Counted from the first letter of the stretch, positions 10,024 through 25,411 are shown. The stretch: DNA of 30,620 bases from Candidatus Peregrinibacteria bacterium (GCA_043798815.1 JAZDOH010000030.1:1-30620), one strand, 5' to 3'. Translations and numbers: made by a program. The notes: generated from the sequence alone by a model not told the origin.

Positions 10024-10605
10024 TTAATAGCGTTGGCATTCTACCCATCGTTTATTTGAAGTATTTTCAGGAGAAGCGATAATGAAACCGACCCGTTCCA
10101 GCGGGCTTTGGATTTTTTGAGGTCGGGGCGGGTAGATCAGCGCGTAAATTTGAGTCGTGCGCGGGCTTTTGTGCCCCATCAGGTTTTGGATCACTTTCAA
10201 ATCGATGCCATTTTCCGCCAAATGAGCCGCAAAACTGTGTCGCAGCACTTGAAAACGAATTGTTTTTGCAAGGCCGGTTTGCCGAAGTGCGCGCCGAAAA
10301 ATCCGTTGTACGTTTTTTTCGGAAAAAGGCCGTTGTCGGCGGTTGATGAAAACCTGGTCGTCCGGCGGACGGTTCAGTGCTCGCCGCCACAAAGCAATTT
10401 TCAGTTTATGCGGCAGCAGCGTGTTCCGTTCGTCCAGGCGGATCAGCTGTTCCTGGAAATCAATATTTTCGATTTTCAGGGCGACTATTTCCTTTATTTT
10501 TAAACCAGCTCCATAGGCAAGAGCCACCATGGCTTGATGGGTTGGATTTTTAATTCCGTGCAGCAGACGCGCAATTTCCTCGGGCGCCAGGATCACTGGT
10601 TGCAT
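10024..10605 (-). CDS. Short tyrosine recombinase (XerD/integron-integrase-like catalytic domain only) with degenerate catalytic residues
   Basis: Motifs PVILAPEEI, LAYGAGLKIKEI, QVLRHSFAAHLAENG, IQNLMGHKSPRTTQIY and IQSPLE. There is no N-terminal core-binding domain. The ATG at 10605 is preceded by a T-tract. Confidence 0.88.
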   Translation of the reverse strand: MQPVILAPEEIARLLHGIKNPTHQAMVALAYGAGLKIKEIVALKIENIDFQEQLIRLDERNTLLPHKLKIALWRRALNRPPDDQVFINRRQRPFSEKNVQRIFRRALRQTGLAKTIRFQVLRHSFAAHLAENGIDLKVIQNLMGHKSPRTTQIYALIYPPRPQKIQSPLERVGFIIASPENTSNKRWVECQRY

Positions 10606-10740
10606 AAAATTCGTTTGAATACAAAAGACAAACGGCAAGTTAACATAAGTGTGGCGATTGGCGCAAGTTTTTTTGGTGAGCCTTCGGCTTGGCGCCTGCC
10701 CGTGCCGGCCATTGGTCTTCCTCTTTGCGGTGCGTTTTCA

Positions 10741-10941
10741 GCACTTTTTGAAAATGTCCCCCTTTTTAGCAGGTTTTGGTACAAAAAGGGACACTTTTTT
10801 TTGACATTGCTAGCAATCTATTTTTTTTAATGAATTGCGCACAGAAACCAGTTATATAAAATACATGTTTTCCTTTTGGGGCTATCGCCCCAACTCTAAA
10901 AAAGAATCCGATTTTGTTTTTTATTTATTTTTAGAGGGGAA
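10741..10941 (+). repeat. Intergenic repeat family, copy 1 (left inverted repeat of cassette 1)
   Basis: Colinear with the reverse complement of 13203-13415. Shared blocks are 10783-10796 vs 13361-13374 (14/14), 10862-10876 vs 13277-13291 (15/15), 10894-10921 vs 13230-13257 (27/28) and 10932-10941 vs 13203-13212 (10/10). Confidence 0.93.
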
Positions 10942-10987
10942 ATAAGGTGTCTTCTCCGCTGCGCTCCGAAAACGGTTTATTTATAAA

Positions 10988-11017
10988 TTGAATAAAAAAG
11001 AGTAATGCCTATATAAT
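10988..11017 (+). promoter_or_regulatory. Putative sigma70 promoter of the cargo gene
   Basis: TTGAAT at 10988-10993, 18 nt spacer, TATAAT at 11012-11017. Confidence 0.45.
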
Positions 11018-11043
11018 ACAAACAGTTTTTAAAAAATGAAATT

Positions 11044-13164
11044 ATGAACAGACAGCCTAAACCGGATTCAAAGAAATATACAGATTTGATCTCTGAAATT
11101 CAAAAAGGTTATATCAAAGTCCCTAAATTTCAGAGAAATTTTGTTTGGAGTCTGGATAAAACAGCAAAACTATTAGACAGTATCCTAAAGGGCTATCCTA
11201 TCGGAACATTTATTTTATGGGAAACCAACGAAAGGTTAAACGACATTAAGAATATTGGTAACCTTGAGCTTCCAGCAGTTCCAGATGACACCAAAGTCCA
11301 GTATGTTTTAGATGGTCAACAGCGCATTACTTCTCTTTATGCAGCTTTTAAGGGCGCACAAATTCAAAAGGATGGTGAAAAGAAAATTACAGATTATGCG
11401 AATATTTTTGTGGATCTAGAAGGAGATGTCGACAATAATGATGAGCAGATTGTTGTTTCGGAGAAACCCGAAGGTATTTTTATCTCACTTCATGAAATAC
11501 TTAATTTCAGTGATCATCTACTCGAAATAAAAGAAAAATATTCCAATGAACAATTTACTAAAATACACCTATACTCTCAAGCATTTTCAACATACGATTT
11601 CTCAACAATTATTCTTCGTAAAGAAGATATAGATTCTGCTATTGAAGTTTTTACAAGAATTAATACAGGAGGACAAACACTAACATTGTTTGAAATCATG
11701 TCTGCAAAAACTTACGATGAAGAACAAGATTTTGATATGGAGGATGAATTCCAAAAGTTGATGGAAGAATTGACGGAACGAAAATATAACAGCATCTCCA
11801 GTTCCGTTATTTTAAGTATTTTGTCCCTTGTTTTAAGCAAAAACAAAGAATGTAAAAGAAAAACGATTTTACAACTTGAAAAGCAAAAAATTATTGAAGC
11901 CTGGAATGATGTAATTTCCGCATTAAAGGAAAGTATAGATTATTTTCGTTTCGTCTACCGTATTCCTGTTTCCGCTATTTTGCCCTATGATTCGCTTTTA
12001 GTACCTTTTGCTTATTTTTTCTACTACCAAAAAGAGAGACCAAAAGGCGAGCAAATAAAATATTTAGAAGAATTTTTTTGGAGAGTTTCTCTTTCTTCGC
12101 GATATTCTAGTTCAACCGAATCAAAATTAGCACAGGACATAAAACGAATTGATGAAATTTTGAAAAATAATCGTCCAAACTATGATGATGTTAAGGTATT
12201 TTTAAACTCCCCTAAGGATCTGATAGAAACTAACTTTAGTGCAGGAAGCAGCTATTGTAAGGCTATTTTATGTTTATTAGCATATCACGAACCAAAAGAT
12301 TTACGGGACAATGGAAGAGTCATTTTAGACAATTCGTGGCTAAAGATTGCGAACAGCAAAAATTTTCATCATTTTTTTCCTAAGGCATATTTGAAGAAGC
12401 TTAATATTGGAAATGGAAATAGCTTAGTTAATATTACTTTAGTAGGGGCGGACTTAAATAAACGAAAAATTAAAGCAAAAGCTCCGTCAATCTACATCCA
12501 GGAATTCTTAGATGAAAACGACGAATTGCCTACAGCATTAAAATCGCACTTGATAAACGGATTAGAAGAATTTGGAATTCAGAGCGATGATTATCTGGTT
12601 TTCTTAGAAAAACGAGCTGACATAATGTTCAAGGAGCTTAAAGATCGAATCGAACTTAAGCGCAAGGAAGACAGGAAGGAGGATGAATTAAGAGAAATAA
12701 TCCTAAGTCTTGAGAATGAGATATTAGAAAAAAAATCAACATTGAGATTTGATTTACGAGAAGGAAATATTAACAAGAAATTAGAGTACGTTATTGCCAA
12801 AACTATTTCCGCTTTCTTGAATAGCGAGGGTGGGACTCTCATCATCGGAGTTGATGATAACGGGAATATATTAGGGCTTGAAAAAGACATTCAGACTCTT
12901 GAAAAGCAAAATTTAGATGGGTTTTCATTGCACTTAAGACAGGTAGTAAAGAAATATTTGGGAGAAAATTACGAAAACTATTTAAAGATTTCTTTCCCAA
13001 AAATTGAAAATAAGGAAATATGCGTTATCAAAATATCAAAAAGCGGAAAACCAGTTTTTGTAAATATTGAAGGTGACAAAGAATTTTTTGTTCGCAACGG
13101 CGGATCTTCTATCCCTAAAAATAGACAAGAACAAAGCGAATACGAAAAACTACATTGGAATTAA
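11044..13164 (+). CDS. DUF262 (GmrSD/ParB-like) + HNH-like (DUF1524-type) + Schlafen/AlbA_2 fusion protein; candidate defence nuclease
   Basis: DUF262 motifs VPKFQRNFVW, VLDGQQRITSL and FTRINTGG. HNH-like NFHHFFPK...NSLVNITL...LN. AlbA_2 motifs ENEILEKKS, ISAFLNSEGGTLIIGVDDNG and FFVRNG. Confidence 0.85.
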   Translation: MNRQPKPDSKKYTDLISEIQKGYIKVPKFQRNFVWSLDKTAKLLDSILKGYPIGTFILWETNERLNDIKNIGNLELPAVPDDTKVQYVLDGQQRITSLYAAFKGAQIQKDGEKKITDYANIFVDLEGDVDNNDEQIVVSEKPEGIFISLHEILNFSDHLLEIKEKYSNEQFTKIHLYSQAFSTYDFSTIILRKEDIDSAIEVFTRINTGGQTLTLFEIMSAKTYDEEQDFDMEDEFQKLMEELTERKYNSISSSVILSILSLVLSKNKECKRKTILQLEKQKIIEAWNDVISALKESIDYFRFVYRIPVSAILPYDSLLVPFAYFFYYQKERPKGEQIKYLEEFFWRVSLSSRYSSSTESKLAQDIKRIDEILKNNRPNYDDVKVFLNSPKDLIETNFSAGSSYCKAILCLLAYHEPKDLRDNGRVILDNSWLKIANSKNFHHFFPKAYLKKLNIGNGNSLVNITLVGADLNKRKIKAKAPSIYIQEFLDENDELPTALKSHLINGLEEFGIQSDDYLVFLEKRADIMFKELKDRIELKRKEDRKEDELREIILSLENEILEKKSTLRFDLREGNINKKLEYVIAKTISAFLNSEGGTLIIGVDDNGNILGLEKDIQTLEKQNLDGFSLHLRQVVKKYLGENYENYLKISFPKIENKEICVIKISKSGKPVFVNIEGDKEFFVRNGGSSIPKNRQEQSEYEKLHWN

Positions 13165-13202
13165 AATAAGGTGTTTTAGGCATCGAGTATTCACCCCTTT
13201 GA

Positions 13203-13452
13203 TTCCCCTCTACCCTTCGTCAAAAACGGAAAAACAAAATCGGATTCTTTCTTAGAGCGATCCGCCTAAGCGGATTAAAGGAAAACATGTACTTCATATA
13301 ACTGATCCAGTGTGCGCAGTTTTGTTTTTTGCGCGTAGTTTTCCTGCGAACGTCAAATTGAAGTGTCCCTTTTTTGCAGGAAATGACATCTAAAAAGGAC
13401 ATTTTTGAAAAGTGCCCTTGAGGTGCCCCGGGGGAGTGTTCTATTTTTGGCG
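13203..13452 (-). repeat. Intergenic repeat family, copy 2 (right inverted repeat of cassette 1)
   Basis: Inverted match to copy 1. Direct match to copy 5 (13351-13380 vs 25220-25249, 29/30) and to copy 3 (13404-13452 vs 24348-24396, 44/49). Confidence 0.93.
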
Positions 13453-13512
13453 CACCGGCTGGCGAACTGGCAGGCACACCTACCGACGCACCAGCCTATA
13501 ACCAATTACTTT

Positions 13513-14574
13513 ATGGATGAATATCTTTACCTTTGGGCCCAATGGGGCGCCGCGGAAACGGCGGAACAATACCGGCAACTCAAGGAAACTTTTGGAGATC
13601 TTGAACGTGCGTGGAAAGAAATAACTCCGGCGTTTTTTACGCCTTACAATTATGGCGCCGAAAAACTCCAACGCCTTTTTGAAATTCGCCGTTGCCTGGA
13701 TTTCCAGCAAATCACGCAAGATTTGGCACGGTTCAAAACCACTCTTTTTTGCATTGATGAACCCAGTTACCCGGAATGTCTTAAAAACATTCCCGATGCC
13801 CCCCCTTTTCTTTTTGTGCGCGGCCAACTGCCCCCGCTACACAAGGCCTTTGCCGTGGTGGGTACGCGCAAAATGTCCGCTTATGGCCGTCACGCTACGG
13901 AAGTCCTTGTAGCCGATCTTGTCCGCAATGGGTTTGTCATCGTCAGCGGTTTGGCCAATGGAGTGGATGACTGCGCGCACGTAACCACCCTTGAATACCA
14001 TGGCACCACTGTTGCGGTGCTCGGCTGCGGCGTGGATTTGATTTATCCCGCCAGTAACGAACGACTGGGGGAACAAATTTTGCGGCAGGGCGGAGCCATC
14101 GTGAGCGAATTCCCTTTGGGAACGCCTGCCATGAAATATCATTTTCCCCGACGCAATCGCATCATTTCCGGCCTCAGCCGCGGGGTACTCGTCATTGAAG
14201 GCGGTATGAAATCGGGGGCAAAAATCACAGCTGAAAAGGCGGTTGAACAAGGCCGTAATGTTTTTGCCGTCCCCGCTCCTTTAAGCGGAGAACTTTCCTG
14301 CGCCAATTACCTCATCCAGCAGGGGGCGGCGCTCGTGCAAAGCGCGCAAGATATTCTGGGTCATTACCAAATGCAAGGCCTTGATTTCCACCAAACCGTG
14401 GAACTCACTCCCGAAGAACAGGAAATCATGAATCACATTTCCCAGGGCGGAAAAACAATGGACGAATTGGTTGTGAGCACCCCCTACAGCATCCCGCAGC
14501 TCTCCGAAATTCTCCTCGTGCTTTGCCTTAAAAAGCAGCTTCGCGAAATGGGAAACAAATGGGTTTTGATTTAA
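13513..14574 (+). CDS. dprA: DNA-processing protein DprA/Smf
   Basis: Motifs YPECLKNIPDAPPFLFVRG, AVVGTRKMSAYG, IVSGLANGVD, SEFP, FPRRNRIISGLS and SGAKITA, plus a C-terminal winged helix. The ORF-track extension to 13405 is translated repeat. Confidence 0.96.
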   Translation: MDEYLYLWAQWGAAETAEQYRQLKETFGDLERAWKEITPAFFTPYNYGAEKLQRLFEIRRCLDFQQITQDLARFKTTLFCIDEPSYPECLKNIPDAPPFLFVRGQLPPLHKAFAVVGTRKMSAYGRHATEVLVADLVRNGFVIVSGLANGVDDCAHVTTLEYHGTTVAVLGCGVDLIYPASNERLGEQILRQGGAIVSEFPLGTPAMKYHFPRRNRIISGLSRGVLVIEGGMKSGAKITAEKAVEQGRNVFAVPAPLSGELSCANYLIQQGAALVQSAQDILGHYQMQGLDFHQTVELTPEEQEIMNHISQGGKTMDELVVSTPYSIPQLSEILLVLCLKKQLREMGNKWVLI

Positions 14575-14604
14575 ACCGGTTTTGCGTTATGATGACCCCT
14601 TCCT

Positions 14605-15003
14605 ATGTTTGATCTAATCTTTACCCCACTTCGCCGGGTTCTCATTATGTTCTTGCTGATTGTTCATGCAACCATGGTATTTTTTGTGATGCAGCGTTTT
14701 GAAAAAGCCGAAGTGCGCGCTTTTTTTACAGAAACATTTGTTTCACCGTCTTCCTCGCAGGTCATTTCGGCTAAAAAACCCAAGATTCCTTTTCTCATCG
14801 ATCAGCCTGCCACGTCGGAACAACCCAACACAAAGGCCGGAGACACAATGACGTTTAAATCCAATCAGCCGGCTCAATGGCGAGTGGATCACGAATGGGT
14901 TGGCGAAGGTAAAAAGGCATTTTGGTCTGCGACTTTGGGGCGACACGTCGTCCAGGCGTTTCACAATGGCGAAGAGCAAAGAATAATTATAGAAGTACAA
15001 TAA
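14605..15003 (+). CDS. Membrane-anchored hypothetical protein with a small C-terminal beta domain
   Basis: One N-terminal TM helix. The C-terminal WRVDHEWVG...W...GRHVVQA...RIIIEV resembles the Ig-like tail of PBP1C-type proteins (tentative). Confidence 0.65.
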   Translation: MFDLIFTPLRRVLIMFLLIVHATMVFFVMQRFEKAEVRAFFTETFVSPSSSQVISAKKPKIPFLIDQPATSEQPNTKAGDTMTFKSNQPAQWRVDHEWVGEGKKAFWSATLGRHVVQAFHNGEEQRIIIEVQ

Positions 15004-15030
15004 TTTATTCTATCTGTCCATCTATTTTTT

Positions 15031-15058
15031 TTGCCTTTGTAGACATGCTGTCTATAAT
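15031..15058 (+). promoter_or_regulatory. Putative rpoB promoter
   Basis: TTGCCT, 16 nt spacer, TATAAT. It overlaps the dyad TAGACA-TGC-TGTCTA (15040-15054). Confidence 0.55.
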
Positions 15059-15141
15059 AGCTTGGATTCTGACAGCGTCCTTCTGATTGTGTTGTGGATG
15101 AACGGACATCTCTTTTTTATCTCGTTCACCCTTTTTTCTTT

Positions 15142-18100
15142 ATGGTCACTGCCACCAAAACGCCCGGCCTACCGGCGGGCAAAAAGACGCCCATCATGTC
15201 ACTCAAGCCAACCAAGATTGTACATGGGCGCCATTATTTTAATGAGCAGGAAGAATTTCGTCTTCCCCCGCTCATTGAAGTCCAACTGAGTTCTTATCAG
15301 TGGTTTTTGACAGACGGTCTTAAAGAATTACTAGAAGAAGTATCGCCCATTGCGGATTTTTCCAATAAAAAAATGGAACTCCATTTTTTGACCCACTCTT
15401 TGGATAAACCGAAATACGATCCCATCACGGCCAAGCGAAAAAATCTCACGTATGAAGCTTCGCTGAAAGCCCATGTTCAGCTCATCAATAAGGAAAGCGG
15501 GGAAATCAAAGAGCAAGATGTCTTTTTGGGCTCCATCCCTTTGATGACGGACAAAGGCACATTCATCGTCAACGGCATTGAGCGGGTGGTGGTGAACCAA
15601 ATCGTGCGCAGCCCCGGGGTGTTTTATTCCCGCAACTCCAGCACCCCCGGGTTTTTTAACGCCAAAATCATCCCCAAACGCGGCGCCTGGTTGGAATTGG
15701 AAACGGATAAAAAAGGCATTCTCACCGTTAAAATTGATCGAAAGCGCAAAATTCCCGCCACCCAATTACTTCGCATTTTCGGTCATCACAAAGACAGCGA
15801 CATTCTCGATTTATTCAAGGATGTGAATGTGAATCTCAACAACGATTTCATTCAGAATACCCTTGAAAAAGATCCCGCGCGCACCGTGGATGAAGCGTAT
15901 CAAAGCATTTATCGCAAAATCCGTCCGGGCGACTTGGCCACTCCTGAAAACGCCAAACAGCTCATCGAAACCTTGTTTTTTGATTTCAAACGTTATGACA
16001 TGGGTCCCATCGCCCGCTACAAATTGAACCGGCGCTTTGGCACCAACATTCCCGATGACATGAAACACCGCGTATTTCAGGTGCAGGATTTCGTGAACAT
16101 CGTCAAAGGGTTGATCGAACTGAACAACGGTGAAGGGGGCGAAGACGACATTGACCACTTGAGCAATCGCCGCATCCGTTCTGTGGGGGAATTGGTTCAA
16201 AACAAATTCCGCATGGGATTGCTCCGCACCGATCGCATCGCCAAGGATCGCATGACCATCATGGATTTGGAAACCGTCACCCCCACACAACTCATCAACT
16301 GCCGACCCATCACGGCGGCGCTGCGGGAATTTTTTGCTTCCTCCCAGCTCTCGCAATTCATGGATCAAACCAATCCGCTCTCCGAGCTTTCCCACAAACG
16401 GCGCATCTCGGCCATGGGTCCGGGCGGGCTTTCCCGCGAGCGTGCTTCTTTTGACGTTCGCGACGTGCATACTTCCCATTACGGCCGCATTTGTCCGATT
16501 GCCACTCCGGAAGGTCCCAACATTGGATTGGTGGTGCATTTGGCCGCTTATGCCCGTGTGAATCCTTACGGATTTGTAGAAACCCCTTATCGAAAAGTGG
16601 CTCATCACGTTGACCTTAAAGCGGAAGAACTGACGGGACGCATTGCCGACGAAGAAGTGAAAGACGGCCGCAAGACTGTAGTGAAAGCAGGCGAGGTGAT
16701 TACCCGCGCCCAGGCGGCTAAAATCGTGCAAATCAAAAAGAAAGTGGCCAAGCCGCCGGTGGTTGTTTTGGAACACCCCATGGCTCGCCAACTCGTAAAC
16801 AAGGTCGCCGCCCAGGACATCAAAGTTAATCGCAAGGTGTTGGTCAAAAAAGGAGAAGTGATTGATGAATTCACTGCGCGTGCGATTGCCGCGGATAAAA
16901 AATTGATTGAAGTGAAAGTGCAGGATCAACCGGAAAACCGCGTGCGTGTGCGCGCGTACCTCACGGAAGACGTTCAATATTACGATGCGGACGCGGAACG
17001 GAGCTTCGTGATTTCTGAAGGTAATGCTGTGCTGAATGAAAAAAAGGAATTCACGGATACCCGCGTGGCGGCTCGTCGAAATGGCGAACCATCGCTGGTG
17101 CACGTGCGCGACATCACTCACATCGACATTTCCCCCAAACAAATCATCTCGGTCACCACAGCGCTCATTCCGTTTTTGGAACACGATGACAACACTCGCG
17201 CTTCCATGGGCAGCAACATGCAACGCCAGGCGGTATCCCTAATTCGTCCCACCACTCCCATCGTAGGAACGGGGATGGAACATGTGGCGGCTGAAAGTTC
17301 CGGCCAAGCCATTACGGCCCGTCTGAAAGGCGAGGTGCTCCAGGCCGATGCCACCGAAATTGTGGTCAGTTACGCGGATGGTAAAAAAGAAACCTATCCC
17401 ATTTTCAATTTCCAGCGCTCGAACCAGGCTACCTCCATTCACATGCGCCCAGCGGTAAAGAAGGGCGACAAACTACAAAAAGGCGATGTGCTCATAAATG
17501 GCGCGGCGGTGGATAAAGGGGAATTGGCGCTCGGGCAAAATCTGCTCGTCGCCTATTTGCCCTGGGGCGGTTACAACTATGAAGACGCCATCATCATCTC
17601 CGATCGATTGGTGCGTGAAGGGTTTTACGACTCCATTCACATCGAAGCCTTCAGTTTGGATGTGCGCGATACTAAACTCGGACCCGAAATCGTGACGCGT
17701 GACATCCCCAATGTCGGCGAGGCGCGCCTGAAAGATCTAGATGTGGATGGCATTGTGCGCATTGGCGCAACCGTCCGTGAAGGCGACATTCTCGCAGGTA
17801 AAATCACACCCAAAGGCGAAACAGAACTCACAGCGGAAGAACGCTTACTCCAATCCATTTTCGGCGACAAAGCCAAAGACGTCAAAGACACATCGCTCCG
17901 CCTTCCCGGAGGCGAAGGGGGTAAGGTGGTGGATGTCCAGATTTTCACCCGCCAGGAAGGCGATGAACTGCCAACGGGTGTCATCCGCCAAATCAAAGTG
18001 TACGTGGCTCAAACCCGCAAGATCCAGGTGGGTGATAAAATGGCCGGCCGGCACGGAAACAAAGGGGTCATTTCCCGCGTTGTGGCTCAGGAAGACATGC

Positions 18101-18972
18101 CATTTTTGCCCGACGGCACTCCGGTCGACATCATTTTAAACCCCCTCGGCGTGTCGAGCCGTATGAACATCGGCCAGATTCTTGAAACCCATTTGGGCTG
18201 GGCGGCAGATGTGTTGGGGATTCGAGTGGCCACCCCCGCTCTTAATGGAATGCTCCTCGATCAAATCGAAACTCTGATGAAAGACGCCGGATTGCCACAA
18301 GACGGCAAACTCCAACTGTTTGACGGCCGCACCGGAGAGCCTTTCTATTACAAGTCTGTGGTTGGCAAGGTGTACATGCTCAAACTGCTCCATTTAGTGG
18401 AAGATAAACTCCATGCCCGCAGCGTCGGCCCTTACTCCCTCGTCACTCAGCAGCCTTTGGGAGGGAAGGCGCAGCATGGAGGCCAACGTTTCGGGGAAAT
18501 GGAAGTGTGGGCACTCGAGGCTTATGGCGCCGCTCATACGCTCCAGGAGATGCTCACCATTAAATCCGATGACGTCATCGGCCGCGCCAAGGCTTACGAA
18601 TCCATCGTCAAAGGTGAATCCATCCGCACGCCCAGCGTGCCGGAAAGTTTTAATGTTCTCGTGAAAGAACTCAAGAGCTTGTGTTTGGATGTCGGGCTTC
18701 TGAAAGAAAAGACCCCTGAAAAATTGGAAGAAGTTCCTCTTGAAAAAGTGATCGTAATTCTGGATGACGAGAGCGAAGTTCCCGAAGCCCACCAAATCCG
18801 CGAGTTCAAAGCCGGCAGTGAATCAGAAGAAGAGCTGACCGCGGAAATCATCGGTCGCTCGGGTGGAGATCGAAGTGTTGTGAAGTCTCTGGAAGACAAA
18901 CTTACCGAAGACGAAGCTCCGGAAGGCAAACTTTCCACTCGCGACCTCAAGGCGCTGGAAGAAGAGAAATAA
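15142..18972 (+). CDS. rpoB: RNA polymerase beta subunit
   Basis: Motifs [44 protein letters not shown] and [18 protein letters not shown]. The start is 15142 or possibly 15196. Confidence 0.99.
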   Translation: [1276 protein letters not shown]

Positions 18973-19009
18973 TTAATCATTTAATATTTAGAATTTAAAA
19001 TTTATTTTT

Positions 19010-19429
19010 ATGCGCAGTGTTAACAAAGTTCTTCTCATCGGCAATTTAACCCGTGATCCCGAAATCAAACAAACCGGGAACGGCCAGACCATCGTCACCT
19101 TTGGAATGGCGACCAATCGCGAGTGGGTCACACAAGGAGGTGAAAAAAAGTCCCTCGCCGAGTTCCACAATGTGGTGGCCTGGGGCCGCTTGGCGGATAT
19201 TTGCGGCAAATTCCTTAAAAAAGGAAAATTCGTCTATGTGGAAGGGTATTTAAAGACCCGCTCCTGGGATTCTCCCGAAGGAGTTAAAATTTTTAAGACC
19301 GAGATCGTGGCGCAAGACATGATCATGCTTGAAAAACGCCCCAAAGAAGAAGGGGTAATCGCCGAAGAAATAGAAACCTTCTCTCCCGAAGCGAATCCGG
19401 GGGAAATGGACGAAATTCCTCCCGTCTAA
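19010..19429 (+). CDS. ssb: Single-stranded DNA-binding protein
   Basis: Motifs VNKVLLIGNLTRDPE, FHNVVAW, KGKFVYVEGYLKTRSW and TEIVA. Confidence 0.95.
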   Translation: MRSVNKVLLIGNLTRDPEIKQTGNGQTIVTFGMATNREWVTQGGEKKSLAEFHNVVAWGRLADICGKFLKKGKFVYVEGYLKTRSWDSPEGVKIFKTEIVAQDMIMLEKRPKEEGVIAEEIETFSPEANPGEMDEIPPV

Positions 19430-19471
19430 ATCATTAAGAATTCGATATTAGAAATTTAATCATTTTATTCT

Positions 19472-22400
19472 ATGGTTCCATCCAAAGGTAAAGGTCCCCA
19501 ACGTCACGAAGACTTTGATGCCATCAGCTTAGCTGTGGCGAGTCCTGAAGCGATCCTCAGTTGGTCGCACGGAGAGGTGACCAAACCCGAAACCATCAAT
19601 TACCGCACCCAAAAACCCGAACGCGATGGACTGTTTTGCGAAAAGATTTTTGGTCCCACCAAAAACTGGGAATGCTATTGCGGCAAATACAAGCGCATCC
19701 GGTATCGCGGAGTTGTGTGTGAAAAATGCGGCGTGGAAGTCACCCGTTCCATCGTCCGCCGCGAACGGATGGGGCACATCAGTTTGGCGGTGCCCGTCAC
19801 CCACATCTGGTTTTTGCGCTCCACCCCCAGCCGCGTGGGATTGCTTTTGGATCTCCCAATCAAAGCGATTGAGCAGGTGATTTATTTCGCCGCATACATC
19901 GTGATCGAAGTCGATGACAAGGGGAAAAAAGAAGCCCTCGTTCAATTGGATGAAGATTATAAAAAATACAAGAAGCAGATTCAGGAGGAATTCAAAGACA
20001 AGAGCAGTGATCTGAAGCATAAAAAGAAAGACAAAAAAGTGAAAAAAGAGGAATCGGAAGGAGTTGATCCCCAGGAATTGGTCAAATTGGAAGATTCTTA
20101 CGCGCAAAAAATTGAAGAACTCGACAATCAACATCGCCAGGCCAAAAACGATTTGGTGAGCCTACACATGGGCAAGGTGGTTGGAGAAGTGGAATACCGT
20201 GATCTTTCCATGAAATTCGGCCATGTGTTCCGGGCCGGAACAGGCGCGGAATCCATTCGCCGCATCCTGGAATCCATCAACCTGGAAAAATTCATCAAAT
20301 CCCTGGAAGCGGAATGCACGCAAAGCACGGGCCAACGCCAAAAAAAGCTCATCCGCCGTCTCGCGTTTTCCAGCGCTCTCCACAAAGCTGGTATTCGGCC
20401 GGAGTGGATGGTGGTAACCCAGCTCCCCATCATTCCTCCCGACTTGCGGCCCATGGTGCAGCTCGATGGCGGCCGTTTCGCCGCCTCCGATCTCAACGAC
20501 TTGTATCGCCGTGTCATCAATCGCAACAATCGCCTTCGCCGTTTACTCGCCATCGGCGCTCCGGAAGTGATTTGCCGGAATGAAAAACGCATGCTGCAGG
20601 AAGCGGTGGACACCTTGTTCAATAATTCCGCACGCGGCGGCCGTGCCGTCTTCACCGCCGGTGACAAACGCAAACTCCGATCTTTGAGCGACATGCTCAA
20701 GGGAAAACAAGGCCGTTTCCGCCAAAACCTGCTCGGCAAACGCGTCGACTATTCCGGCCGTTCCGTAATCGTGGTGGGTCCGCGTCTCAAGCTCCACGAA
20801 TGCGGCATTCCCAAAGAAATGGCCCTTAAGCTCTTCAAGCCGTTTGTCATCGGCGAACTCATTCGTCAGGAATTGGCTCATAACGTTAAAGGAGCGGAAC
20901 GCCTGATTGAGGCCAGCAAAAAAGAGGTGTGGGATATTTTGGAACACCAAACTCAGGAGCGCTTTGTCCTACTCAATCGCGCGCCTACCCTGCATCGTCT
21001 GGGAATTCAAGCCTTTAAACCCGTACTAATCGAAGGCAAGGCCATCCAGATCCATCCGCTGGTCTGCGCGGCGTTCAACGCTGACTTTGACGGCGATCAA
21101 ATGGCCGTCCACTTGCCATTGTCTGAAGGGGCTCAAAAAGAAGCCAAAGAACTCATGCTTTCCAGCCACAACCTGCTCAAGCCTTCCGCCGGAGATCCAA
21201 TCATCACCCCGTCGCAAGACATGGTGCTTGGAGTGTACTTTTTGACCCAAGGGTTTAAAGGTAAAAAAGGTGAAGGCATGGCTTTTTCTGACATCAGTGA
21301 AGCAGTGAACGCTTACCGCATGGGTTGTGTTGATTTGCAGGCGTTCATCAAAGCCCGCGTACTCGCACCAAAAGATTCGGAAAACTCCACTCAAATTGTG
21401 GAAACCACCGTGGGACGTTTGATTTTCAATTCCATTTTACCGCCCCAAATACCCTACATGAATCAGGCATTGGGAAAGGATGATCTTCACACTCTTTTAG
21501 CCAATGTATTGGAACAAATCGGCTCTGAAGTCACCGCCAAATTGGCCGATGAAATCAAACGCATTGGCTTTAAATTTGCCACCAAATCCGGCATTTCCAT
21601 TTCGGTGTTCGACATGCTAACGCCCGAAGGACGCGATAACACCGTGCGCGATGCGGATGAAGTGATACGCAAGATCAACAATCAATACTGGAAAGGCTGG
21701 ATCACGGCGGACGAACGATACAATCACGCCATCCGGCTGTGGACCCGGGTCAAAAATGACGTCACGGCTCAGATGATCGAACGCTTCAAGAAATATCCTG
21801 AAAATCACATTTACTACATGATCGACTCCGGCGCCCGCGGCAACTGGGGGCAAATCACCCAGCTGTGCGGTATGAAGGGGCTGGTGGCCAATCCGAGCGG
21901 ACGCACCATCGAATTGCCGATCAAATCCAATCTCAAGCACGGCTTCTCCATTCTGGAATACTTCATCGCCACGCACGGAGGACGCAAAGGAAAATCCGAC
22001 ACGGCCCTTAAAACCGCCGAAGCCGGTTACCTCACCCGTCGTTTGGTGGATGCGGTGCAGGACATCGTGATCAAAGAAAACGATTGCGGTTCCGATCACC
22101 AGCACGCCGTAACCCGTGAAGAAAGCCAAAAAATCGGTGAAGAATTTGAAAATCGCATTTTCGGCCGCACCCTGGCTCAGGCCATCAAGCATCCCAAAAC
22201 CGGTAAAACCATTGCCGATAAGGGGGAAGAGGTCGACAATCGCATCACCGATCAAATCCGCACTCTTGGCGTTGGAGAAGTCAAAGTGCGCACCATCATG
22301 ACCTGCCGCACCGAAAACGGCATTTGCCAACGTTGCTACGGACGTGATCTGGGCACCAACAAAACCGTTGATTTGGGAACCGCAGTGGGAATCATTGCGG

Positions 22401-23377
22401 CGCAAAGCATCGGTGAACCAGGAACTCAGCTCACCATGCGCACGTTCCACATGGGAGGGGTTGCTGAGGGATCTGACATCACTCAAGGTCTCACTCGGGT
22501 GGAAGAACTCTTTGAAGCTCGTCAGCCTAAACGCACGGCTATTCTTTCGGAAATTGCCGGCCGTGTGAGCATCAAGCATAAAAAAGAGGGAATCGAAGCG
22601 GCCGTCACGGCGGAAAAGCTCGGTGAAGATCGTTACGAACTTTCTCCGGATTTTGACATTGTAGTCAAAAAAGGCGACAAGATTGAACCCAAACAAATCA
22701 TCGCCCGCTCCCAGTTCGACAAAACCACCCTTAAAGCCAAAGACGAAGGCAAAGTCATCGAAGTGAGGGACAACGTGATTGTGACCAAGCACACGGAACA
22801 CCATGTGAAGCTTTATACTTTCGATCCCCGCACTAATTTACTGGTCGCCAACAACCAACTGATTGAAAAAGGCACACCGCTCAATCGTGGTCATCTGAAT
22901 TTGCAGGAACTCCTCCTGATGACCGACGTGTACCCGGTGCAACGCTACATCATGAATGAGGTGCAGCACATTTACGCGTCGCAGGGGCAAACCATCAACG
23001 ACAAGCACATTGAAATCATCGTCAAACAGATGTTCTCCAAATGCCGCATCATCCATCCGGGGGGCAGTACTGGCTTGTTGTCCGGTGAAGTGCTCAATGT
23101 GGGGCGTTTGGAAAAATTGAATAATGAGCTCGCCAAAAAGAAGAAAAAGCCCATCCGCACCGAACGATTGCTCCTCGGAATTTCCCGCATCGCCATCACC
23201 ACGGAAAGCTGGCTTTCCGCCGCATCCTTTCAGGAAACCATCCGCGTTTTGGTGGAGGCCTCCACCACCAGAAAGGTAGATCGATTAAAAGGCTTGAAAG
23301 AGAATGTTATCATTGGTAAACTCATCCCCGCTGGTCAAGTTTTCCGAGACAGTTTAACCTCTAAAAAAGCTAAGTAA
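19472..23377 (+). CDS. rpoC: RNA polymerase beta' subunit
   Basis: Motifs [17 protein letters not shown]...[41 protein letters not shown] and GLKENVIIG. Confidence 0.99.
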
Positions 23378-23793
23378 TGCCAACCATCAACCAACTCGTT
23401 CGCCGGTCTCGCAGGAATCCCGGACACAAGAGTAAATCTCCGGCACTGCAATTTGCCTGGAATTCCCTGAACAATCGCCCTGTGGACCTTCCGGATGGCG
23501 CTCCTCAAAAACGAGGCGTGTGCATCAAGGTGGGAACCATGACGCCCAAAAAGCCGAACTCCGCGTTGCGCAAATTCGCCAAGGTTCGTTTGACAAATGG
23601 CATGGAAGTGAACGCGTACATCGGCGGCGAAGGCCACAACCTCCAGGAACACTCGGTGGTGATGATCCAGGGCGGACGCGTCAAAGATCTCCCGGGCATG
23701 CGCTACCACATCGTTCGCGGCCTTTTGGACACACAAGGAGTGCAGAATAGGAAGCAGGGAAGGAGCCGCTACGGAGCAAAACGACCTAAATAA
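23377..23793 (+). CDS. rpsL: 30S ribosomal protein S12
   Basis: Motifs [20 protein letters not shown] and GRVKDLPG. It overlaps rpoC through TAATG. Confidence 0.99.
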
Positions 23794-23800
23794 TTTTTTT

Positions 23801-24259
23801 ATGGCTCAACAAAAAGCACGATACATGCCGGCAGGATCCACGGATTTGCAAGAAAAGTTCATCAATACGATGATGCGCTGTGGCAAAAAGGATTTGGCTC
23901 GCCGGATCTTTCAAACCTGCATGCACACCCTCCGCGAACAGGGGAATAAGAACCCGGAAGAACTTTTTGAAAAAGCTGTTAAAAACGTGATGCCTCAAAT
24001 GGAAATCCGTCCTCGCCGCGTGGGAGGAGCCGTGTACCAAATCCCCGTGGAAGTGAAGCCCAAACGCCAGCTCTCTCTCAGTATTCGCTGGATCGTCGGA
24101 GTTTGCCGCGACCGCCGGGGAAAACCCATGGCAGAAAAACTGGCGCAAGAACTCCTCGATGCCAGCAAAGAAACCGGCGCCGCCTTTAAAAAGCGTGAAG
24201 ACGTTCACCGCATGGCTCAAGCCAACAAGGCCTTCGCGCATTTTGCGAAGTATAATTAA
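23801..24259 (+). CDS. rpsG: 30S ribosomal protein S7
   Basis: Motifs KFINTMMRCGKK, RRVGGAVYQIPVEV and KKREDVHRMAQANKAFAHF. Confidence 0.98.
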   Translation: MAQQKARYMPAGSTDLQEKFINTMMRCGKKDLARRIFQTCMHTLREQGNKNPEELFEKAVKNVMPQMEIRPRRVGGAVYQIPVEVKPKRQLSLSIRWIVGVCRDRRGKPMAEKLAQELLDASKETGAAFKKREDVHRMAQANKAFAHFAKYN

Positions 24260-24295
24260 AAGGTTAATGGGGCACCGCTGGCAGGTAAGGACACA

Positions 24296-24396
24296 GAAAG
24301 GGTTCCTTTTTTGCCCCGCCTTGGCGTGGTCATCCAAAGGTAACACTTTTGAAAAGTGCCCTTGATGTGCCACGTGGGAAAGTTCTATTTTTGGCG
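24296..24396 (-). repeat. Intergenic repeat family, copy 3 (GC hairpin inserted in the dyad spacer)
   Basis: 24329-24356 vs 25254-25281 (27/28) and 24348-24396 vs 13404-13452 (44/49). The spacer carries CCCGCCTTGGCGTGG at 24315-24329. Confidence 0.88.
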
Positions 24397-24462
24397 GATT
24401 CGATTTGGAACAAGCAGGTTGTACAATTCAGCAATTTGTATTCCCCCTTGTGAGCCGTTTTT

Positions 24463-24525
24463 CACTCTTTTTAAAAATGTACCCTTTAGATACCAAAATA
24501 GGACAAAAAGGGACACTTTTTTTGG
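24463..24525 (+). repeat. Intergenic repeat family, copy 4 (left inverted repeat of cassette 2)
   Basis: CACTCTTTTTAAAAATGTACCCTTTAG...CAAAAAGGGACACTTTTTTT parallels 10742-10801, with the 20-nt block CAAAAAGGGACACTTTTTTT identical. Confidence 0.85.
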
Positions 24526-24694
24526 TTCTCTAAGTAGGACAAGCCGCTGAGGCGGTTTGACAGCCCACATGATTTACTTTTTAATAAATTACGTATAGAA
24601 ACGAGTTGGGCGAAATTTCTAAAAAATTGTATGGCATTTTGCAAAAATAAATAATACAATGAATGTCGTAAAATAATTTTATTTTTAAAATCAT

Positions 24695-25129
24695 ATGGAA
24701 ACATCAAACAATTCATTATCAAATCAACAAGTATCTCGTCCTTGGCAAGGTACAATGCTTGGCGTTCTTAATATTATTAGCTTGATACTTCTCGGAATAA
24801 CTTTAGTGTTTTTTATTATTATGATGGTTGGTGGAGGTGCCATGTTTTCTGAGATGGTACAAGGAAGTGGCTTACCAATTGCTAGCATGTTTGGCGCTAT
24901 GGGAGCTCTTTTGCTTGTACCATTAATATTAATTTTTACATTGGGTATTTTTATCACAAGGGGGATTTTTAAGGGTCAAAAATGGGCTATTATTGTTACA
25001 ATGATTTTCACCGTATTAGCATTGCTGTATTCATTATTTGATGTAGTTATTGTGTCTATAATAATCAATGGTCTATTTTTGTATGCTGAAGTTATTTGTT
25101 TGAAAAATCCTTTTTACAATAAAAAATAA
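24695..25129 (+). CDS. Hypothetical integral membrane protein (about 4 TM helices, AT-rich)
   Basis: A 144-aa, strongly hydrophobic ORF with A/T-rich codons. Confidence 0.75.
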   Translation: METSNNSLSNQQVSRPWQGTMLGVLNIISLILLGITLVFFIIMMVGGGAMFSEMVQGSGLPIASMFGAMGALLLVPLILIFTLGIFITRGIFKGQKWAIIVTMIFTVLALLYSLFDVVIVSIIINGLFLYAEVICLKNPFYNKK

Positions 25130-25184
25130 AATCCTTGAATAAGTACATTTTTTAGGAACATCGCCTAACTATTCTGTTCTATAT

Positions 25185-25285
25185 GCAGTTTTGTTCTTTT
25201 GGCTTGGGTTTCCTGTGAGCGTCAAATTGAAGTGTCCATTTTTTGCAGGTTTAGTCATCCAAAGGGAACACTTTTGAAAAGGGCC
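25185..25285 (-). repeat. Intergenic repeat family, copy 5 (right inverted repeat of cassette 2)
   Basis: Colinear direct match to 13316-13415. Confidence 0.92.
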
Positions 25286-25411
25286 TAAAGTGCTCCACCA
25301 GAAGGAAGTCACTAGCGCGAAAGGAAACCTTTTACAGGCAATCGCTGGGCGCCATCGCGCGCAGACCCGCCTTTTACACCCTTTTTAAAATTGAGTATAA
25401 TGCGGTTTGCG

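Follow-up and report, generated by a model that had tools for sequence, protein, structure and literature searches.

Inverted repeats around single genes in a Peregrinibacteria genome as probable ends of integron-like cassettes

We analysed a stretch of 30,620 nucleotides from Candidatus Peregrinibacteria, hereafter called the window, in which a dispersed repeat family surrounds single AT-rich genes. We consider it probable, at roughly 60%, that each of these repeats forms either the left (L) or the right (R) end of an accessory cassette carrying one gene, in an integron-like CPR system that uses a Xer-type tyrosine recombinase and in which a folded attachment structure would be split upon integration. 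A literature search found no paper on an integron-like CPR system in which a Xer-type recombinase works with dif-like sites. With a profile made from the five window copies, all five were found again (nhmmer, E = 5e-18 to 3e-22), showing that the copies described in the original prediction are real and lie at or near the positions given there. The same profile yielded 12 additional matches on other contigs, two of which represent a single copy common to overlapping contig ends, leading to 16 distinct copies in the genome.

The copies split into two subfamilies, L and R, representing left and right ends. As predicted, both inverted pairs in the window enclose exactly one AT-rich ORF (GC 0.329 and 0.320, against 0.477 for the window and 0.516 for the adjoining core genes). 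Three further one-gene inverted pairs were found on contigs C79, C87 and C112, resulting in five pairs in the genome. All five complete units are arranged as L(+) cargo(+) R(-), with a cargo GC of 0.32-0.46 compared to 0.48 for the genome, and throughout the genome the ends bracket low-GC cargo only and never core operons. Inverted sites around each cargo, a recombinase gene adjacent to them in the window and in relatives, and a cargo that reads from the R end in one relative would also be seen if the recombinase flipped the enclosed DNA for phase variation, as in fim switches, shufflons and Bacteroides invertons. However, with an invariant L to R direction of the cargo in this genome, a promoter-like site inside the unit that would make flipping of little consequence, ends that were never homogenised and have different central regions, and an adjacent enzyme that looks inactive, such invertible segments are scarcely credible here.

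Passenger genes between inverted ends, with no enzyme gene inside, are also expected of a non-autonomous transposon (a mobile insertion cassette or MITE-like element), for which L and R would be long terminal inverted repeats mobilised by a transposase in trans. Contigs break at the repeat copies, and one congener contig begins near the locus with the C-terminus of an rve-type transposase. Nevertheless, we regard a transposon as very improbable: the L and R ends are consistently of different classes, the boundaries match dif-like sites rather than target duplications, with no duplication seen beyond the sites themselves, and the gene that consistently accompanies the ends encodes a tyrosine recombinase. 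In addition, a search for the Y1 (IS200-like) transposase PF01797 found none in the genome (85% complete), which separates the family from REP/REPIN elements with their RAYT.

The first cassette starts with copy 1, an L-type outer module (10718..10807, +; nhmmer E = 5e-18, L subfamily) containing the palindrome GCACTTTTTGAAAATG, a dyad with arms at 10751-10767 and 10783-10798, a T-run and a TTGACA box (10801-10806). It is followed by a dif-like L site (10832..10862, +; ..GCGCACAG AAACCAG TTATATAAAAT; 28.0 bits with a position weight matrix) with its right arm towards the cargo, and by the inner arm B-L (10848..10980, +; nhmmer 127.9 bits), which ends in a covarying hairpin and a T-run. A TTGAAT-18-TATAAT site (10988..11017, +; 10/12 positions in a consensus scan) is inferred to act as the promoter of cargo 1 (11044..13164, +), which encodes a fusion of GmrSD_N (DUF262) and Schlafen AlbA_2 domains (Pfam, 109.9 and 66.4 bits). 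Downstream lie the inner arm B-R (13166..13304, -; nhmmer 83.9 bits), the inverted partner of B-L with a conserved tail of its own, and the inner R site S_i (13291..13322, -; assigned by sequence and R-type homology), whose right arm also faces the cargo and whose central region is unlike that of the L site. The unit is closed by copy 2, an R-type outer module (13349..13474, -; nhmmer E = 6e-22, R subfamily; profile match 13349-13437 (-); repeat D2, 88 nt at 76%) that includes an outer flank common with copy 3. The predicted colinearity of this pair over about 200 bp was confirmed by three arms of 28, 28 and 26 nt (96%, 93% and 85% identity, respectively) in conserved order, and in both copies the inner ~130 nt constitute a separate module (B-L and B-R). 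The window B-L arm is 81-90% identical to copies from other genera and phyla, the R-type tail of B-R is common to R arms in other genera, and S_i is homologous to R-type sites at 42 ends from other genomes.

The second cassette is located between rpsG and an SLH gene. Copy 3 (24288..24418, -; nhmmer E = 2e-18 and alignment; profile match 24288-24382 (-)) abuts the rpsG stop codon and is a solo R-type module, an unpaired R end without the inner part. Back to back with it lies copy 4, an L-type outer module (24441..24525, +; nhmmer E = 5e-19), followed by the best match to the dif-like matrix in the genome, the L site at 24586..24616 (+; ..ACGTATAG AAACGAG TTGGGCGAAAT; 35.7 bits). Cargo 2 (24695..25129, +) encodes a 144-aa membrane protein (4-TM) that matched no Pfam family, and behind it are S_i of this cassette (25158..25190, -; from sequence) and copy 5, an R-type outer module beside the SLH gene (25219..25307, -; nhmmer E = 3e-22).

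All copies had been predicted to share a dyad core on which the recombinase would act. The core is indeed present in every copy, although it is imperfect, with 81% of the cells pairing, and a covariation check across the copies revealed no compensatory change in the dyad of this genome. Instead, it is conserved as sequence, with a 15-bp palindrome and a third half-site. Dif-like sites of 29-31 bp are located 25-60 bp inside each dyad with the right arm facing the cargo, and it is at these inner sites that the breakpoints of cargo exchange fall, which, together with the lack of compensatory change, argues against the dyad as the recombinase site. Judged from sequence, the dyad is a lineage-specific hairpin or operator-like module outside the dif-like site, and the dif-like sites are better candidates for recombination. 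The position weight matrix for these sites was built from 20 platform-type sites, and shuffled genomes gave only 1-6 matches at >=12 bits. A platform-type site of 31.3 bits is present 166 nt upstream of an intact recombinase gene on contig C69 (11797-11827), and three further platform-type sites border low-GC islands in this genome. The sites are near-palindromic, of the single-enzyme type, and resemble published dif/attP sites such as VGJ attP (ACTTCGCATTA-7-TTATGGTAAAA). In both window cassettes the L site and S_i are mutually inverted, right arms inward, and have different central regions. Neither the outer boundaries of the ends nor any outward-facing site was located in this genome.

To place these ends in a wider context, we looked at their counterparts in other genomes. 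The B arms (~130 nt, 80-95% identical) were found in 10/31 family genomes and at 67 loci in MAGs whose labels cover many CPR phyla and some groups outside CPR; some of these labels (Gammaproteobacteria, Bacteroidota) may reflect mis-binning. No match to the inner arm was found among 72,556 plasmids. In other MAGs the cargo lies between a single L arm and a single R arm that face each other; adjacent B arms were convergent L/R pairs in 24 cases and divergent junctions in 8, and R/R pairs did not occur. The L arm is often next to a divergent Xer/IntI-like recombinase gene with an attI-like site, and in at least 10 loci from several CPR phyla the distance to the recombinase is 80-260 bp; together with the varying cargo at orthologous loci, this supports the predicted recombinase-linked capture or exchange system. 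Of the 42 R ends, 24 lose their conservation at AAC|GTT, where a target-type right arm follows, and in relatives the L sites and the outward-facing site of the R ends are direct repeats. Between cassettes we found an element, J, that folds as a three-way junction (median folding z = -6.8) and in which the arms of two inverted sites pair to close the structure. In relatives, compensatory changes affect 18 of 30 pairs across the three helices of J, and complementarity of its own arms is 9.3/11 versus 7.3/11 for arms of other elements.

Part of this pattern could be produced by regulatory repeats, in which the dyad would serve as a bidirectional terminator or as the operator of a DNA-binding protein specific to the lineage, and the inner arms as portable promoter or leader modules. 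The link to accessory genes would then arise from acquired genes bringing or recruiting such signals, with no dedicated recombination. Sequence conservation of the dyad without covariation is consistent with this, as are the T-run and subsequent TTGACA-17-TTTAAT-like boxes of the L ends, the extended -10 (TGGTATAAT) in the J hairpin loop and the Shine-Dalgarno-like AGAGGGGA that terminates both B arms. However, the terminator scan made no call at the dyads, and purely regulatory signals do not account for the restriction of the ends to low-GC cargo, the replacement of cargo at orthologous loci with breakpoints at dif-like sites, or the linkage, seen across phyla, between the ends and a recombinase with its site. 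Regulatory repeats are thus an unlikely explanation by a wide measure.

The cassettes themselves were compared with the orthologous loci of two congeners, in which, as capture or exchange of cargo would lead one to expect, the ends persist while the cargo differs or the 4-TM gene is missing. At the first cassette, the segment swapped relative to congener L134 extends from the right arm of the L site to S_i, the right-hand breakpoint, and both outer modules stay in place. Congener L132 lacks the cargo 2 gene at the orthologous locus; its homology at rpsG/SLH begins at S_i, its orthologous R end (the counterpart of copy 5) precedes the same SLH promoter, and a counterpart of copy 3 is absent at the rpsG position. 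Both cassettes look like the products of exchange at two inverted sites rather than of single-site insertion. Such an exchange could occur on double-stranded DNA with the same enzyme family and sites, as proposed for Acinetobacter pdif modules, which have Xer sites in opposite orientation at their two ends (PMC6449649, PMC13141974). If two DNA molecules crossed over L-by-L and R-by-R, the segment would be swapped without inversion and without a folded single strand. The inward-facing, inverted L site and S_i with their differing central regions agree with this alternative, as do the limits of the segment swapped in L134 and the start of homology in L132. For a double-stranded reaction, however, the strong compensatory evolution of J in three helices would be superfluous, and the direct repeats formed by the L sites and the outward-facing R-end site are like those left by single-site integration. 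Moreover, the left-arm motif and the right arm are 7, 8 or 10 nt apart depending on the site class, which is awkward for one double-stranded core site. We therefore consider this form of module exchange rather doubtful.

A tyrosine recombinase gene had been predicted to start just outside copy 1. The gene adjoins the copy (10024..10638, -; 204 aa; Pfam Phage_integrase 115 bits), with its 5' side ~80-100 bp away, but it encodes a short, degenerate mini paralogue consisting of the catalytic domain only. This protein is 40% identical to the family that we call platform recombinases, whose genes in relatives are divergent beside a primary attI-like site at which cassettes stack. It has no CB (N-terminal) domain, a 6-aa deletion removes the beta-hairpin Lys, GLK replaces GLR (R->K) and FQVLRHS replaces FHSLRHS (H->Q); it is kept in a congener at 81% aa identity. 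The mini paralogue looks inactive, and these losses, along with an intact orthologue of the platform recombinase on a separate contig (C69), speak against the neighbouring gene as the acting enzyme.

The platform recombinase is present in 26/31 family genomes. Among 19 orthologous loci examined, 14 have a recognisable attI-like site (..CGTATAGAAACGAGTT....GAAAT) upstream of the recombinase gene, with or without cassettes; for the remaining five, 0-210 nt of upstream sequence were available. The top NCBIfam match of the enzyme is the XerA/integron integrase family. Four platform recombinases, including that on C69, scored 190-221 bits with the IntI model TIGR02249 (cut-off 265), in two stretches that skip approximately profile positions 180-236; these enzymes lack the IntI-specific insert and fall outside IntI. 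Since the genome also has a second, more XerD-like gene on C17 (255.7 bits, where the platform enzyme reaches 173.5), a dedicated paralogue appears to act as the partner of the cassettes.

In the cassette system that we favour, the free cassette would be circular or single-stranded, and its R arm, J and L arm would fold together as one long imperfect hairpin. No recombination product, circle or junction was seen in the sequences analysed. The recombinase, presumably the intact C69 orthologue, would cross this folded cassette with a resident site at ..AAC|GTT.., splitting the hairpin so that its halves become inverted repeats around the gene. The cassettes of this genome would sit off-platform at secondary landing pads, where the L site and the inner R site may delimit the replacement of cargo. 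As the dyad of this genome does not covary, the folded-hairpin model rests on relatives, whose J sequence differs. The further step, that this is a CPR integron analogue with a compact Xer-type enzyme without the IntI domain and a long self-folding attachment structure recombined single-stranded and split on integration, is a tentative reading; single strands might be delivered, for example, by natural transformation. If true, it would account for the near-identical arms across differently labelled phyla as well as for the inverted repeats that surround each gene, and the window would be a snapshot of the system as it seeds secondary landing pads between core genes.

The original prediction stated that the system is not a classical integron. 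The layout, with a recombinase, an adjacent primary site and folded-site cassettes, is integron-like, which does not support that statement, although the enzyme lacks the IntI-specific insert and scores below the IntI cut-off. As in sedentary chromosomal integrons and CALINs, the recombinase gene is divergent from an adjacent primary site corresponding to attI, the mostly single-gene accessory or defence cassettes stack there, and the inter-cassette sites are kept by fold and not by sequence, as J of the relatives is. The G|TT crossover of integrons resembles the AAC|GTT conservation boundary, and CALINs also have cassettes away from the integrase. In contrast to integrons, this system has dif-like sites with 11-nt arms and a far longer folded region with the putative crossover inside it, which would leave the cassette bracketed by inverted halves, and its ~130-nt arms are nearly invariant across phyla. 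Integron cassettes are promoterless, with one 3' attC and one orientation, whereas those described here have inverted L/R ends and carry promoter-like sites of their own, such as that of cargo 1.

IMEX, notably CTXphi attP(+), share the dif-like sites of 11-6/7-11 design (PMC3089051, PMC4246890). Two inverted dif-like sites of CTXphi fold into a hairpin (PMC3089051), and here, too, two inverted sites ~80-115 nt apart can form a hairpin, which would present one recombination site, and no integrase gene is found inside the element. Unlike in IMEX, the cargo consists of cellular genes, one or a few, and not of a phage. IMEX integrate at the chromosome-dimer resolution site by means of the host's housekeeping Xer; the partner enzyme here appears to be a dedicated paralogue. 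Acinetobacter pdif modules are likewise discrete accessory modules between inversely oriented Xer-type sites (PMC6449649, PMC13141974), with site orientation alternating along the array and content shuffled between replicons or loci. However, they have XerC/XerD heterodimer sites on Acinetobacter Rep_3-type plasmids, whereas the present sites are chromosomal in CPR, near-palindromic and of the single-recombinase type, with long structured flanks (J, B-L and B-R) beside them and a dedicated platform of recombinase and primary site. Single-recombinase Xer modules (xerS/difSL, xerH/difH and archaeal xerA/dif; PMC5357621) also link a compact two-domain recombinase to a near-palindromic site, and the 'Cand' subgroup of Xer-related recombinases (PMC8138268) is among the closest systems; the best NCBIfam family of the present enzyme is XerA/integron integrase. 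What sets the present system apart from these modules is that its site is a stacking point for cassettes and that the same genome has a second, more canonical Xer-like gene.

The window, which is the entire contig C21 of the genome G000 (0.92 Mb in 114 contigs, 85% complete, GC 0.48; the closed genome CP064978.1, labelled Candidatus Peregrinibacteria, is a relative of the same family), starts with genes for an ABC ATPase and an AIRS-like protein. These are followed by a short gene of the Phage_integrase family on the minus strand (10024-10638, the mini recombinase), a fusion of GmrSD_N and Schlafen AlbA_2 domains (11044-13164), dprA with a probable start ATG at 13513, and rpoB, rpoC, rpsL and rpsG, the last of which extends to 24259. 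Then come a gene encoding a 144-aa membrane protein with four predicted transmembrane segments (4-TM; 24695-25129), the SLH protein gene, a GGDEF protein gene on the minus strand and fusA.

The original prediction described five related repeat copies in this region. They are real, as a profile of their common ~90 nt recovered every one of them (E = 5e-18 to 3e-22). The same profile gave 12 more matches on eight other G000 contigs, two of which represent a single copy lying on both of two overlapping contig ends (141 nt, 100% identical), so that 16 distinct copies were found genome-wide. The copies divide cleanly into two types, L ends with a T-run and then TTGACA after the dyad, and R ends with CAATTTGACG...CAGGAAA after the dyad. 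Copy 1 (10718-10807, plus strand) and copy 4 (24441) are L ends, and copy 2 (13349), the solo copy 3 (24288) and copy 5 (25219-25307) are R ends. All five complete units consist of an L end on the plus strand, a single gene read from that end, and an R end on the minus strand; the GC content of their cargo is 0.33, 0.32, 0.43, 0.46 and 0.36. For the first pair of repeats, the predicted colinearity over ~200 bp was confirmed by repeat comparison. An R end and an L end were found back to back in two cases, at 24288/24441 and on contig C87. An overlap of 141 identical bases within an L module joins the end of contig C99 to the start of C112, and therefore these contigs are neighbours at which the assembly was broken by the repeat; several recombinase contigs of relatives likewise stop just 5′ of the recombinase gene. 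About 65 nt outside copy 5, a strong promoter-like site of the SLH gene (TTTACA-17-TATAAT, 25373-25401) is kept in a congener. In Rfam, the repeats had no match at the gathering threshold in the window, where the sole match is a tRNA, and six loci had no match at E≤1. No RAYT/Y1 transposase was found in G000.

The dyad within these copies had been proposed as the recombinase site. Among 18 copies, including three congener loci, 81% of the cells are able to pair, and no measure of covariation exceeded that of shuffles; a structure under compensatory selection was therefore rejected. What is conserved is the sequence itself, a palindrome GCACTTTTCAAAAGTG with a third half-site AAAAAGGGACAC. The module is absent from forty relatives of other genera and present in congeners recovered from metagenomes. 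Our reading is that it serves this lineage as a hairpin or as a protein-binding module rather than as the crossover site. It is also not a canonical intrinsic terminator, as the terminator scan makes no call, owing to the loop of ~15-24 nt.

Copies 1 and 2 each have an inner part of ~130 nt, here called the B arms (B-L, 10848-10980, and B-R, 13166-13304), for which sequences of other genera show 81-90% identity. The distribution of this module is much wider than that of the dyad module. Of the 31 family genomes, 10 have a B arm, and an exact 26-base pattern taken from the module matched 67 loci, in MAGs labelled as Peregrini-, Uhr-, Sacchari-, Kerfeld-, Komeili-, Gracili- and Magasanikbacteria as well as Gammaproteobacteria, Bacteroidota, Nitrospirae, Bdellovibrionales and Micrarchaeota. 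Mis-binning may be behind some of these labels. Because arms are near-identical in MAGs labelled as different phyla, the sequences point to frequent exchange between distantly related community members. When searching IMG/VR viral contigs, INPHARED phages and PLSDB plasmids with the inner arm, we found no match, and no vehicle. In relatives, the arms again fall into two classes, each with its own conserved tail. Where two arms are adjacent, L and R converge in 24 pairs (0.5-6.6 kb apart) and diverge at 8 junctions; two L arms stand in direct orientation in 4 pairs and converge in one, and no pair consists of two R arms. In 31 L arms, the sequence is nearly invariant as far as the terminal hairpin, which covaries. 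In about ten loci (L036:3611-3666, L046, L049, L066, L067, L072, L080, L087, L088 and L099), the final ~55 nt of the L arm, comprising a Shine-Dalgarno-like motif, hairpin and T-run, is tandemly duplicated. An 11-bp direct repeat at the cargo edges was considered as a target duplication and rejected, since it is part of the conserved B-L/B-R tails.

The L arm has a divergently oriented tyrosine recombinase gene as its neighbour, at a distance of 80-260 bp, in at least 10 of these 67 loci; in five more the distance is 0.7-2.7 kb. In NCBIfam, this recombinase family, which we call the platform recombinase, matches XerA/integron integrase best, and one member passes the cut-off. The IntI profile scored 190-221 bits against a cut-off of 265, and because this match falls in two stretches, the IntI-specific insert is absent. 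Orthologues are present in 26 of 31 family genomes and in all 17 genera. The true orthologue of G000 is intact and located on contig C69 (62% identity), with an AbiEi/AbiEii toxin-antitoxin pair directly behind it (C69:9326-10787).

The mini recombinase beside copy 1 is a paralogue (40% identity) without the N-terminal domain and the beta-hairpin lysine, and with R->K and H->Q changes. It belongs to a family of ~165-220 aa (window 10024-10638; G000 C4:5950-6444; L134:828-1490 in a congener; L129, from contig C89 of genome G005, another genus), in which the N-terminal DNA-binding domain is missing and a 6-aa deletion takes out the beta-hairpin Lys. The first Arg and the His of HxxR are lost to varying extent, and the Tyr is kept in all. 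Given 81% aa identity between two congeners, these genes are apparently retained, perhaps as regulators or as accessory DNA-binding proteins. The C4 gene has no site or repeat in its vicinity.

Of 19 loci, 14 have a recognisable conserved site upstream of the platform recombinase, both with and without a B arm after it; the five remaining loci offer just 0-210 nt of upstream sequence. The site is near-palindromic, for instance ATTTCGCATAA GAACGAG TTATATGAAAT, with extra TTCGTATAA-type boxes upstream, and it resembles the 11-6/7-11 design of published dif and attP sites (PMC3089051). A loxP-like reading of ATAACTTCGTATA in one relative was rejected because the arms are arranged the opposite way round. 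On C69, the site is located 166 nt upstream of the intact recombinase; a degenerate L-arm-like leader and then grpE-dnaK come after it. Scanning G000 with a weight matrix of these sites gave seven strong sites. Two are in the window, at 24586-24616 (35.7 bits) and 10832-10862 (28.0 bits), both 25-60 bp inside L dyad modules and directed towards the cargo. Three more (C61:4267-4297, C57:16948-16978 and C96:9173-9203; 28.5-32.8 bits) have upstream boxes in common and lie exactly at the edge of low-GC islands of 2-3 kb with NYN, methyltransferase or Fic genes; the dyad repeat is absent there. The related sites at the R ends (13291-13322 and 25158-25190) are inverted, with a central region unlike that of the L site.

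We also compared orthologous loci for swapped cargo or empty sites, as the original prediction had suggested. DprA is encoded at 81-84% identity on three metagenome contigs of congeners (L132, L133 and L134). L134 retains the mini recombinase, the L and R modules and dprA, and its cargo is a different 147-aa ORF (GC 0.35) without B arms; similarity to G000 breaks off at the L site's right arm and restarts at the inner R site. In L132, rpsG is followed by a GC-rich piece of 230 nt and then by the inner R site and the R module, ahead of the SLH promoter also present in G000; both the L module and the 4-TM gene are absent. Upstream of dprA, L132 and L133 carry a low-GC insert of 1.2 kb between ~170-nt direct duplications of the R module and dprA start. 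These loci indicate that the ends persist while the cargo changes, an outcome in favour of the original prediction. At both loci, dprA and rpsG/SLH, the pattern resembles an exchange in which two inverted sites take part, like that of pdif modules (PMC6449649); this is the main rival mechanism to cassette integration. A GC-rich segment of ~190 nt after rpsG in L132 (12280-12520) has on its two sides a perfect 13-bp inverted repeat (GTGAATTACGAAA / TTTCGTAATTCAC) that resembles the recombinase-box motif. The L132 insert holds three small ORFs, its duplications lie within 1-300 and 1510-1700, and the contig starts with the C-terminal end of an rve-type transposase. An exact-protein look-up of RpsG and the mini recombinase gave no further assemblies with either.

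In relatives, R ends of two genera are near-identical for ~300 nt, and the outward limit of conservation is exactly ..ATAAC|GTT... This boundary is present in 24 of 42 R ends and is followed by a right arm of the empty-platform type, so that each R end has two sites, one outward and one inward, separated by 76-123 nt. Relative to the L site, the outward one stands as a direct repeat, which is the arrangement that integration would be expected to leave. For the G000 R ends, a search of the outer edge for an outward-facing site gave no convincing match. The stretch between the two sites (J) folds as a three-way junction (median z = -6.8, 27 sequences) with compensatory changes in 18 of 30 pairs, and the two arms of an element match one another better (9.3/11) than they match arms of other elements (7.3/11). 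If the cassette is circular or single-stranded, its R arm, J and L arm would fold together as a single long, imperfect hairpin. A crossover at the point between J and L arm would cut this hairpin in two, leaving inverted halves on either side of the gene. In L065:7731-7862 and 20+ other R ends, a perfect extended -10 (TGGTATAAT or TGTATAAT) occupies the apical loop of the first J hairpin; it is directed towards the R arm and could drive transcription into the cassette from the R end. With this element and the Shine-Dalgarno-like motif at the end of both B arms, a promoter/leader role of the arms is possible.

Among the cargo of relatives are an AAA_21 ATPase, a CsoR-CopA-DsbD/HMA operon, Rrf2 with a methyltransferase, HAD-like and VTT proteins and HsdR_N/N6_Mtase parts. 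Elsewhere in G000, most of the cargo has no annotation, and the domains seen are cyclase-like, NYN, Fic and methyltransferase. Defence genes (GmrSD-Schlafen, AAA_21 ATPase, restriction-enzyme parts, Fic and NYN) are found among the cargo, as is a copper-resistance operon. The genomes of CPR bacteria are tiny, few mobile elements have been recognised in them, and to our knowledge their acquisition of defence and resistance genes is poorly understood. In the literature we found no description of such a system in these bacteria. We infer a recombination system from comparisons of recombinases, their sites, the J fold and the variable cargo. If this is true, integron-style gene capture would be possible on a Xer-type enzyme without the IntI-specific domain, and B arms, J fold and dif-like site would together be a signature for exchanged genes in metagenomes.

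Such a system would also be a mechanistic link among integrons, IMEX elements and dif modules. The J region with its paired sites parallels integron attC sites and the CTXphi attP(+) hairpin, which consists of two inverted dif-like sites ~90 bp apart (PMC3089051). A single recombinase genetically linked to its own site is known from xerS/difSL (PMC5357621), and a 'Cand' subgroup of Xer-related enzymes has been defined from candidate phyla (PMC8138268). Since a separate, more XerD-like gene is present on contig C17 of G000, the platform enzyme looks like a dedicated recombinase, which fits the integron analogy better than the IMEX analogy.
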